Virus record (IMG/VR): IMGVR_UViG_3300049988_000286
Location: 288,001-352,000 of that record
Reading direction: 5' to 3' (one strand)
Origin: a virus
Lineage: Duplodnaviria; Caudoviricetes
DNA length: 64,000 bases
The notes under the pieces were generated by a model. The model saw only the letters and a list, made by a program, of their open reading frames with translations, searched no databases and was not told where the DNA came from. Below, one piece after another: positions 62,697 through 63,435 of this stretch. Both the position numbers and the translations under genes were made by a program. Position 1 is the stretch's first letter. Every line of letters begins with the position of its first letter.

Positions 62697-62772
62697 CACG
62701 CATTGGAGGAGTCAGGTCATCCTCGCGTGTCTGGGAGACACGAGAACACAGGTTCGAATCCTGTATGCGTGA
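62697..62772 (+). tRNA. tRNA-Pro(GGG), no encoded CCA, A37
   Basis: CACGCAT/ATGCGTG acceptor, GAGG/CCTC D-stem, CGTGT-CTGGGAG-ACACG anticodon arm, ACAGG-TTCGAAT-CCTGT T-arm; C1-G72, A73. Confidence 0.8.
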
Positions 62773-62796
62773 CTGGCCCATGAGCAAAAACATCGT

Positions 62797-62874
62797 CGCG
62801 CGGTAGTCCAGTCAGGTTAGGGCGTCCGGTTTGGGACCGGAAGATCAAAGGTTCGAATCCTTTTCGCGCGACCA
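62797..62874 (+). tRNA. tRNA-Pro(TGG)
   Basis: TCCGG-TTTGGGA-CCGGA anticodon arm; GGTTCGAATCC; ends ACCA. Confidence 0.92.
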
Positions 62875-62957
62875 TTTACATAGTTGACAAAGTAGAAACA
62901 GCGATTGACCATAATGGGGAAAGGAGTTGAGAAGAAGAGTTGAAGTAAATCGATAAT

Positions 62958-63042
62958 GCGCTCGTGGCGAAACTGGTAGCCGCGCCAGATTTAGGTTCTG
63001 GTATCTTTGGGTGTGGGGGTTCGAATCCCTCCGGGCGCACCA
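62958..63042 (+). tRNA. tRNA-Leu(TAG)
   Basis: CCAGA-TTTAGGT-TCTGG; long variable arm; ends ACCA. Confidence 0.93.
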
Positions 63043-63055
63043 TCGATCTTGGTAT

Positions 63056-63145
63056 GCGATCGTGGCGAAATTGGTAGCACGCGCAACGTTGAGGGCGTTG
63101 TGGAACGGAAGTTCCGTGGAGGTTCGAGGCCTCTCGATCGCACCA
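63056..63145 (+). tRNA. tRNA-Leu(GAG)
   Basis: CAACG-TTGAGGG-CGTTG; long variable arm; ends ACCA. Confidence 0.92.
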
Positions 63146-63156
63146 GAATACAAGAT

Positions 63157-63242
63157 GGGGACGTGGCGAAATTGGTAGCACGCGCAGGTTTCAGAAACCT
63201 GTGCCGCAAGGCGTGAGGGTTCGACCCCCTCCGTCCCCACCA
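63157..63242 (+). tRNA. tRNA-Leu(CAG), A37
   Basis: CAGGT-TTCAGAA-ACCTG; long variable arm; ends ACCA. Confidence 0.92.
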
Positions 63243-63259
63243 TCGACTGTAGTGATGAT

Positions 63260-63346
63260 GCCGGTGTGGCGAAATTGGTTATACGCGCAGCATTCAAACC
63301 GCTGTGTCCTCCGGGCGTAAGAGTTCGAGTCTCTTCACCGGCACCA
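63260..63346 (+). tRNA. tRNA-Leu(CAA)
   Basis: CAGCA-TTCAAAC-CGCTG (one mismatch); long variable arm; ends ACCA. Confidence 0.9.
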
Positions 63347-63358
63347 TCAACACAGTTA

Positions 63359-63435
63359 CGGGGATTAGGGAAGTAGGTCATCCCGTCTCATTCGGTATGA
63401 GAAGATCGTCGATTCGAATTCGGCATCCCCGACCA
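63359..63435 (+). tRNA. tRNA-Pro(CGG), U37
   Basis: TCTCA-TTCGGTA-TGAGA; C1-G72; ends ACCA. Confidence 0.88.

Follow-up and report, generated by a model that had tools for sequence, protein, structure and literature searches.

Loss of G37 from phage tRNA-Pro and tRNA-Leu(CUN): a common phage trait that may replace the need for m1G37

The window analyzed here is a stretch of 64,000 nucleotides (nt) that corresponds to positions 288001-352000 of a 499,572-bp viral record (IMG/VR record IMGVR_UViG_3300049988_000286; 57% G+C). Our subject is a cluster of seven tRNA genes on its plus strand, at positions 62697-63435, and more precisely position 37 of their anticodon loops, where the tRNAs of bacteria that read proline (Pro) codons and the CUN codons of leucine (Leu) normally have a G (G37) that the enzyme TrmD methylates to m1G37. 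The seven genes were called by ARAGORN, which counts 41 tRNA genes and one transfer-messenger RNA gene in the whole genome, and their loops were read directly from the sequence. In the list below, each loop is written as the two bases before the anticodon, the anticodon, and the two bases after it, the first of which is position 37; the score is that on the Rfam tRNA model.

62697-62772, plus strand: tRNA-Pro(GGG), loop CT-GGG-AG, A37 (base 62736); Rfam 52.7 bits
62797-62871, with CCA to 62874, plus strand: tRNA-Pro(UGG), loop TT-TGG-GA, G37; Rfam 62.6 bits
62958-63039, with CCA to 63042, plus strand: tRNA-Leu(UAG), loop TT-TAG-GT, G37; Rfam 51.3 bits
63056-63142, with CCA to 63145, plus strand: tRNA-Leu(GAG), loop TT-GAG-GG, G37; Rfam 42.2 bits
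63157-63239, with CCA to 63242, plus strand: tRNA-Leu(CAG), loop TT-CAG-AA, A37 (base 63195); Rfam 55.2 bits
63260-63343, with CCA to 63346, plus strand: tRNA-Leu(CAA), loop TT-CAA-AC, A37; Rfam 49.5 bits
63359-63432, with CCA to 63435, plus strand: tRNA-Pro(CGG), loop TT-CGG-TA, U37 (base 63396); no Rfam match

A previous sequence-only reading of this stretch had reported A37, U37 and A37 in Pro(GGG), Pro(CGG) and Leu(CAG), and G37 in Pro(TGG), Leu(TAG) and Leu(GAG). Its loop readings are exact, and ARAGORN, which it had proposed as a check, places seven genes in exactly the span that it gave. All six Pro and Leu(CUN) tRNAs of the cluster have G36. The seventh tRNA, Leu(CAA), has an A/C mismatch at 31-39 of its anticodon stem, and its A37 is the normal state for readers of UUG. 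The anticodon loops are 7 nt long in all seven tRNAs, which rules out four-base-decoding or +1 frameshift-suppressor tRNAs of the sufA6/sufB2 type.

Across evolution, m1G37 is found in all tRNA-Pro isoacceptors, in Leu(GAG/UAG/CAG) and in Arg(CCG), and G37 itself is conserved in all tRNA-Pro isoacceptors (PMC8384417). As stand-ins for the host of the phage, which may differ from both, we used all tRNAs of the Escherichia coli type strain and of one Sinorhizobium meliloti chromosome, the latter taken from a plasmid collection where it is filed under a plasmid name. Passed through the same pipeline, the two bacteria have G37 in every Pro and Leu(CUN) isoacceptor, as does Arg(CCG) of E. coli; the earlier statement that G37 is the normal bacterial state of these tRNAs thus holds in both, and agrees with the published conservation. 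A pyrimidine at position 37 occurs in none of their 49 and 45 distinct tRNA sequences (0/94 in total). Compared with these references, the Pro(UGG) and Leu(UAG) loops of the phage are identical to those of E. coli and S. meliloti. Position 37 is the sole difference between phage Pro(GGG) and its S. meliloti counterpart (CT-GGG-GG), and also between phage Pro(CGG) and the bacterial loops (TT-CGG-GA), while Leu(CAG) departs from the bacterial TT-CAG-GT at positions 37 and 38.

The same kind of change is seen in one of the two His tRNAs of the phage, which has A37 where Sinorhizobium has G37. When phage loops are set against Sinorhizobium-type loops, position 37 is changed in 4 of 9 G37-type tRNAs versus 2 of 29 A37-type tRNAs (Fisher P=0.02), the latter two being Gly-GCC and Ile-GAU, both now G37. 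Change is therefore concentrated on position 37 of G37-type tRNAs, beyond chance within this genome.

The genes for these His, Ile and Gly tRNAs lie elsewhere in the genome. The two tRNA-His genes, at genome positions 443410-443485 and 443601-443674, have A37 (TT-GTG-AT) in one and G37 (TT-GTG-GA) in the other; among the bacterial stand-ins, tRNA-His has G37 in Sinorhizobium and A37 in E. coli. As for the changes in the reverse direction, tRNA-Ile(GAU) (genome 403157-403232) has the loop TT-GAT-GA and hence G37, in the class of ANN readers that have A37 (the t6A site), and tRNA-Gly(GCC) (genome 26072-26144) has G37 in the loop TT-GCC-GA; both tRNAs have A37 in E. coli and in S. meliloti.

Position 37 was examined on a larger scale in two scans of IMG/VR viral contigs, which yielded 234 loci; all counts that follow are counts among the matches listed. 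Pro(UGG) was sought with a pattern that leaves position 37 open (Y-TTGG, 15 free bases, then GGTTCGAATCC), and this gave 85 tRNAs with G37 and 19 with A37. The pattern used first (TGGGH + 14 N + T-loop) hit, for the most part, the variable arms of Ser tRNAs, and contributed by-product tRNAs only. All by-product tRNAs were pooled, those selected on position 37 and duplicates were removed, and simple stem and T-loop checks were applied to the ARAGORN calls, which left 1363 tRNAs; some host tRNAs from the flanks of proviruses may be among them, and these would reduce the share of A37. In the pool, A37 is present in 23 of 120 Pro tRNAs (19%, confidence interval (CI) 13-27%), in 33 of 76 Leu(CUN) tRNAs (43%, CI 32-55%) and in 2 of 4 Arg(CCG) tRNAs. 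The tRNAs for Lys, Thr, Ser, Ile, Met, Asn, Cys and Trp all have A37 in the first viral sample. U37 is found in none of the 120 pooled tRNA-Pro, and a pyrimidine at position 37 in 1.5% of all sampled viral tRNAs; together with its absence from the 94 bacterial sequences, this bears out the remark of the sequence-only reading that a pyrimidine is unusual there.

Among the viral contigs A37 has no link to G+C, and A+T mutation pressure is thereby ruled out as its cause. Clustering at 80% identity places A37 in 16 of the 50 clusters of Pro tRNAs and in 29 of the 62 of Leu(CUN) tRNAs, with very few that are mixed in state. Since many clusters hold A37 and few are mixed, the trait has either many origins or a wide spread, and is stable within lineages. 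Among loci that carry two or more such tRNAs, 24 of 54 are mixed in state versus 29 expected by chance (P=0.08).

Our main finding is that phage Pro and Leu(CUN) tRNAs commonly carry A37 instead of G37, a state that is stable within lineages and that the bacterial chromosomes read here do not show. The idea that the trait is special to this phage, or to the attenuator considered below, has to be abandoned given the 19% and 43% shares in viral contigs and the presence of A37 in cultured phages. For this phage the finding is in fact an ordinary one, a further example of the trait, and the rare U37 is its only unusual point. No statement of the general A37 pattern in phage Pro and Leu(CUN) tRNAs was found in the literature covered, namely open-access papers and preprints. 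The m1G37 mark is regarded as a near-universal, essential feature of Pro and CUN-Leu tRNAs; our survey suggests that phages routinely dispense with it.

TrmD requires both G36 and G37, in a 7-nt anticodon loop carried on an anticodon stem plus D stem (PMC5372744). Because it needs these two bases, Pro(GGG), Pro(CGG) and Leu(CAG), which have no G37, cannot be TrmD substrates, whereas Pro(UGG), Leu(UAG) and Leu(GAG) have both G36 and G37. Neither TrmD nor Trm5 was found in the phage genome. The suggestion made from the sequence that these variants may bypass TrmD is partly supported, at the level of the three tRNAs themselves; it hardly looks like a bypass at the level of the genome, as half of the class is unchanged and states are mixed within phage genomes.

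Six of the seven cluster tRNAs pass the Rfam tRNA model, with 42-63 bits. Pro(CGG) had no Rfam match even at E<=10 in a search of 121 bases, and was absent from the whole-genome Rfam search too. On a covariance model of our own, built from 76 diverse tRNA-Pro genes of viral contigs and run without filters, the three Pro tRNAs score 80.6 (UGG), 70.5 (CGG) and 66.3 bits (GGG) with all pairs standard, and the four Leu tRNAs merely 25-38 bits. The 70.5 bits of Pro(CGG) indicate that its miss by Rfam does not reflect decay, and Rfam was dropped as the arbiter of this tRNA, the unfiltered model having failed to reproduce the miss. The whole-genome tRNA search with Rfam missed Leu(GAG) as well as Pro(CGG), so that tRNA counts based only on Rfam are too low for this phage.

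The Pro tRNAs have the stems of a regular cloverleaf (7/4/5/5 bp), U33, a T-loop of the TTCGAAT type and the G18 G19/A14/U8 core. The exception is the T-stem of Pro(CGG), which ends in A53:U61 instead of G53:C61 and is still paired. A tRNA-Pro(UGG) encoded on an unrelated viral contig of 54.7 kb combines the 17-nt T-arm word of Pro(CGG) with a D-arm that resembles the one in Pro(GGG); A53:U61 is therefore a lineage trait. The identity set by which prolyl-tRNA synthetase (ProRS) recognizes E. coli tRNA-Pro consists of G35, G36, A73 and the C1:G72 pair. It is present in all three Pro tRNAs (NGG anticodon, C1:G72 and A73), and C1, G72 and A73 are nearly invariant in the alignment of the 76 viral tRNA-Pro genes; the G37 of tRNA-Pro is retained solely by Pro(UGG), with A37 in Pro(GGG) and U37 in Pro(CGG). 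Pro(GGG) is the sole tRNA of the cluster without an encoded CCA. Its flanks (62685-62783) pair with each other without a mismatch, so that the acceptor stem and the discriminator become part of one continuous helix, and the fold of 62680-62790 reaches -63 kcal/mol (ViennaRNA). This helix may be a processing site or a maturation lock.

No ProRS was found in the phage genome, and because of this the phage Pro tRNAs are presumably charged by the ProRS of the host. A phage ProRS co-adapted to A37 or U37 is ruled out, the only class II enzyme of that family found being a SerRS. When G37 is left unmethylated, the efficiency of ProRS falls 3-10-fold and ribosomes stall (PMC8384417). In 177 long open reading frames (ORFs) of the phage, CCC and CCG make up 39.5% and 36% of Pro codons and CTG 21% of Leu codons, and the altered tRNAs therefore serve heavily used codons.

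These comparisons of sequence lead us to propose, with about an even chance of being right, that the three altered tRNAs are intact, working helper tRNAs in which the presence of A37 makes m1G37 dispensable. A burst of tRNA synthesis during infection could exceed what TrmD is able to methylate, and unmethylated G37 is harmful. A37 would hard-wire the effect of methylation, as a purine that would stack on the codon-anticodon helix and could not pair with C; with A37, a tRNA would be ready for in-frame decoding from the moment of its synthesis, irrespective of how much TrmD capacity the host has during infection. Charging would be left to host ProRS, and U37 would be a rarer, probably less efficient version of the A37 change. 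If these tRNAs decode well, they would be a natural proof that A37 can replace m1G37, and the proposal, if true, bears on why cells keep TrmD and on the independence of phages from the tRNA-modification state of their host.

Several points weigh against this proposal. Merely three of the six TrmD-class Pro and Leu tRNAs are changed, and Pro(UGG) keeps G37, though it is the most m1G37-dependent of these tRNAs in E. coli (PMC8384417). The mixing of states within genomes, at 24 loci against 29 expected (P=0.08), is near chance and gives weak support to TrmD independence at the level of the genome. Moreover, the effect of A37 or U37 on ProRS could be negative, as m1G37 helps ProRS binding, and the maturation of Pro(GGG) is uncertain, given its lack of CCA and its long helix.

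A somewhat unlikely explanation, but one that deserves consideration, is tolerated drift: position 37 would be under relaxed selection in these auxiliary tRNAs, with any purine and at times any base accepted, and G-to-A transitions would accumulate there, Pro(CGG) with its U37 being mildly harmful and on its way to loss. The mixed states in this genome and in other phages are consistent with drift, and so are the reverse oddities of this genome (G37 in Ile(GAU) and Gly(GCC)), the combination of two rare states, U37 and A53:U61, in Pro(CGG), and the 1.5% of viral tRNAs with a pyrimidine at position 37 versus none in two bacteria. However, A37 persists across four enterobacterial phage groups whose stems are 3-13% divergent, position 37 is uniform within sequence clusters and has no link to G+C, and those tRNAs that have A37 in bacteria stay A37 almost without exception in the viral sample. 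The three tRNAs themselves also argue against drift, since all their stems pair perfectly (A53:U61 is compensated, and common to the tRNA-Pro of another phage), and since they read the most used Pro codons of the phage, for which a poor decoder would be costly.

Less probable still is an escape from a host anticodon nuclease or tRNA-modifying toxin, in which the change at position 37 (and at 38 in Leu(CAG)) would protect a phage copy that replaces the destroyed host tRNA. Evasion of nucleases has been published as a general hypothesis for phage tRNAs, drawn from loop differences at the sites where nucleases act (PMC10264068), and nucleases can read position 37, as the substrates of P2-OLD share an invariant A37 (PMC12445682). 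Mixed states, tRNA by tRNA, fit tRNA-specific defences better than a global bypass of TrmD, and the changes sit in loops that are otherwise host-like by comparison with the S. meliloti and E. coli stand-ins. On the other hand, no nuclease targeting the Pro or Leu(CUN) tRNAs of Sphingomonadales-type hosts was found, and position 37, Pro and Leu(CUN) are not discussed in PMC10264068. Furthermore, one and the same change, G37 to A37, recurs over many unrelated lineages in both Pro and Leu(CUN) tRNAs, which points to a shared cause tied to G37 itself and not to many nucleases.

A further explanation involves the region upstream of the cluster, which contains the following features.

62240-62268, plus strand: promoter-like TTGACA-17 nt-TATAAA (direct reading)
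62311-62454, plus strand: leader ORF of 47 codons (ORF list)
about 62487-62526, plus strand: hairpin followed by T6, a candidate attenuator together with the leader ORF (direct reading)

The leader ORF contains a Leu/Pro run, L P L L P L L P L P L L (TTG CCA CTA CTG CCG CTT CTC CCC TTG CCG CTT CTC), that holds a cognate codon for each of the seven downstream tRNAs. A simple scanner flagged neither the promoter nor the hairpin of 62240-62526. The loss of G37 could be a selected general strategy of phages (for Pro, Leu-CUN and Arg-CCG, and for His in some hosts), associated with a leader that senses slow decoding and induces the replacements, a combination that we consider doubtful. When charged, m1G37-modified host tRNA runs short, such a leader would sense the resulting slow decoding and turn on the replacement tRNAs; if true, this would be a sense-and-replace circuit for a tRNA-modification defect. 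Nothing ties the leader specifically to the loss of G37, and A37 tRNAs are common in phages without evidence of such leaders. The parallel with mgtL and Mg2+ is at most an analogy, and the cultured phages with A37 (T5-like coliphages and others) have no known link to mgtL-type sensing.

Finally, sequencing or assembly error, or decay into tRNA pseudogenes, could be suspected from the Rfam miss of Pro(CGG) and from the lack of an encoded CCA in Pro(GGG), but is very improbable, as the altered tRNAs reach 66-81 bits on the phage tRNA-Pro model or, on Rfam, 55 bits, have standard pairs in every stem and the expected identity elements, and share their states with numerous independent phage records, among them finished genomes of phages in culture, and as three independent errors each falling on position 37 are very unlikely.

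The phage, of about 500 kb, probably infects an alphaproteobacterium. It has a gene of the MucR family, a Pfam family found solely in Caulobacter among 14 control genomes, and this gene matches alphaproteobacterial plasmids; the anticodon loops of the phage are of the Sinorhizobium type. A search of viral contigs with TerL gave at most 41% identity. For a protein of 405 amino acids (aa) encoded next to the tRNA cluster, Logan/NCBI contigs contain relatives at 42-46% identity, the closest of them on a contig of 569,850 bp; neither this protein nor its closest relative was found in the phage, viral-contig and genome-contig collections. An exact-word search for the Pro(GGG) arm gave no match, and a word from the Leu D-arm matched only unrelated phage tRNA arrays in metagenomes.

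Other genes of the phage that relate to tRNAs, and the ORF that follows the cluster, are listed below.

L367, locus coordinates 604-2106: SerRS, full-length
L368, locus coordinates 1372-4125: IleRS, full-length
genome 29319-30599 (L369, locus coordinates 1462-2742): LeuRS-like ORF of 426 aa, best match a bacterial LeuRS at 353 bits (cut-off 548) in two stretches
63464-64000, plus strand, continuing to genome position 352021: Cys-rich ORF of 185 aa with HNH-like motifs (ORF lists; motifs in the translation)

The 426-aa ORF, which lies in a tRNA-rich region, seems to encode a short form of LeuRS that lacks the editing insert and the C-terminal part. The 185-aa ORF has no Pfam family at E<=0.01, and its reading as HNH comes from the motifs; it is located between tRNA-Pro(CGG) and a further tRNA-Leu(UAA) (genome 352380-352465, beyond the window), a placement that resembles that of homing endonucleases in the tRNA regions of T5-like phages.

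The tRNA complement of the genome has other particularities. Two tRNAs have the amber-reading anticodon CTA (genome 102238-102314, plus strand, and 106351-106425, minus strand), one of them with 64.8 bits on Rfam, and TAG is the least used stop in the 177 long ORFs (27, versus 78 TGA and 72 TAA); together they may indicate a partial or stage-specific reading of TAG. Many phage tRNAs for amino acids whose tRNAs are usually of class I, with a short arm, are 85-95 nt long, with long extra arms or inserts; examples are those for Asn (genome 27717-27803), Gln (68172-68259), Cys (52274-52364), Arg (26983-27073), Ile-UAU (393055-393149), Glu (453376-453460) and Met (25686-25776). Lastly, a tRNA at genome 402970-403045 (minus strand; 59 bits on Rfam) has an 8-nt anticodon loop, CT-TCCA-AT, according to ARAGORN, and is possibly an enlarged-loop tRNA for Trp or Gly.

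Four known systems can be compared with this cluster. Phage tRNAs with anticodon-loop mutations have been proposed to be nuclease-resistant (PMC10264068, van den Berg et al. 2023). Like the tRNAs described here, they differ from the host copies inside the anticodon loop; unlike them, their changes map to known cleavage sites of VapC, PrrC and colicins in mycobacteria and enterobacteria, and no nuclease is known to fit the present case. In trmD-deficient E. coli, tRNA-Arg genes with A37 that had been recoded to CCG arose, and these 'would be unaffected by m1G37 deficiency' (PMC8643618, Clifton et al. 2021). They share with the phage tRNAs the presence of A37 on a codon usually served by an m1G37 tRNA, so that loss of TrmD is immaterial, but they result from a laboratory anticodon change in a tRNA that already had A37, with no change of position 37 and no involvement of Pro, Leu or a phage.

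Among cultured phages, the T5-like coliphage vB_EcoS_ESCO40 (OM386660.1) has CT-TGG-AT in Pro(UGG) and CT-TAG-AA in Leu(UAG), where the E. coli loops are TT-TGG-GA and TT-TAG-GT. Relatives of the ESCO40 tRNA-Pro are found in 215 phage records, and A37 in Pro(UGG) is kept in members of Demerecviridae, Stephanstirmvirinae, Vequintavirinae and Erwinia phage Prophecy, whose stems diverge by 3-13%. The T5-like phages thus resemble the present one in that their tRNA-Pro, like that of Justusliebigvirus, Seunavirus, Sugarlandvirus and Prophecy, has A37 where E. coli has G37, and in that their tRNA arrays are interspersed with HNH endonuclease genes. They differ from it in the isoacceptors concerned, which are UGG and UAG in the T5 type and GGG, CGG and CAG here. 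Moreover, the T5 type (CT-TGG-AT) is also altered at positions 32 and 38, whereas two of the three loops here are altered at position 37 alone, and there is no U37 among the tRNAs of the T5-like phages, Justusliebigvirus, Seunavirus, Sugarlandvirus and Prophecy.

U37 is found in the Caulobacter phages CcrBL9 and RB23 (Bertelyvirus), in their Leu(GAG) tRNA, with the loops TT-GAG-TA and CT-GAG-TA (in CcrBL9, locus L150, coordinates 20222-20309). Since the two phages are close relatives (96.6% identity in Leu(GAG)), the conservation of U37 between them is weak evidence. The tRNA-Leu(CAA) of CcrBL9 has G37 (TT-CAA-GT). As in the phage studied here, which probably has a host of the same class, these are large phages of alphaproteobacteria in which a TrmD-class tRNA with U37 stands beside tRNAs with G37, in their case Pro(UGG) and Leu(CAG), so that the states are mixed in one array; the difference is that U37 is carried by a Leu tRNA in the Caulobacter phages and by a Pro tRNA here.

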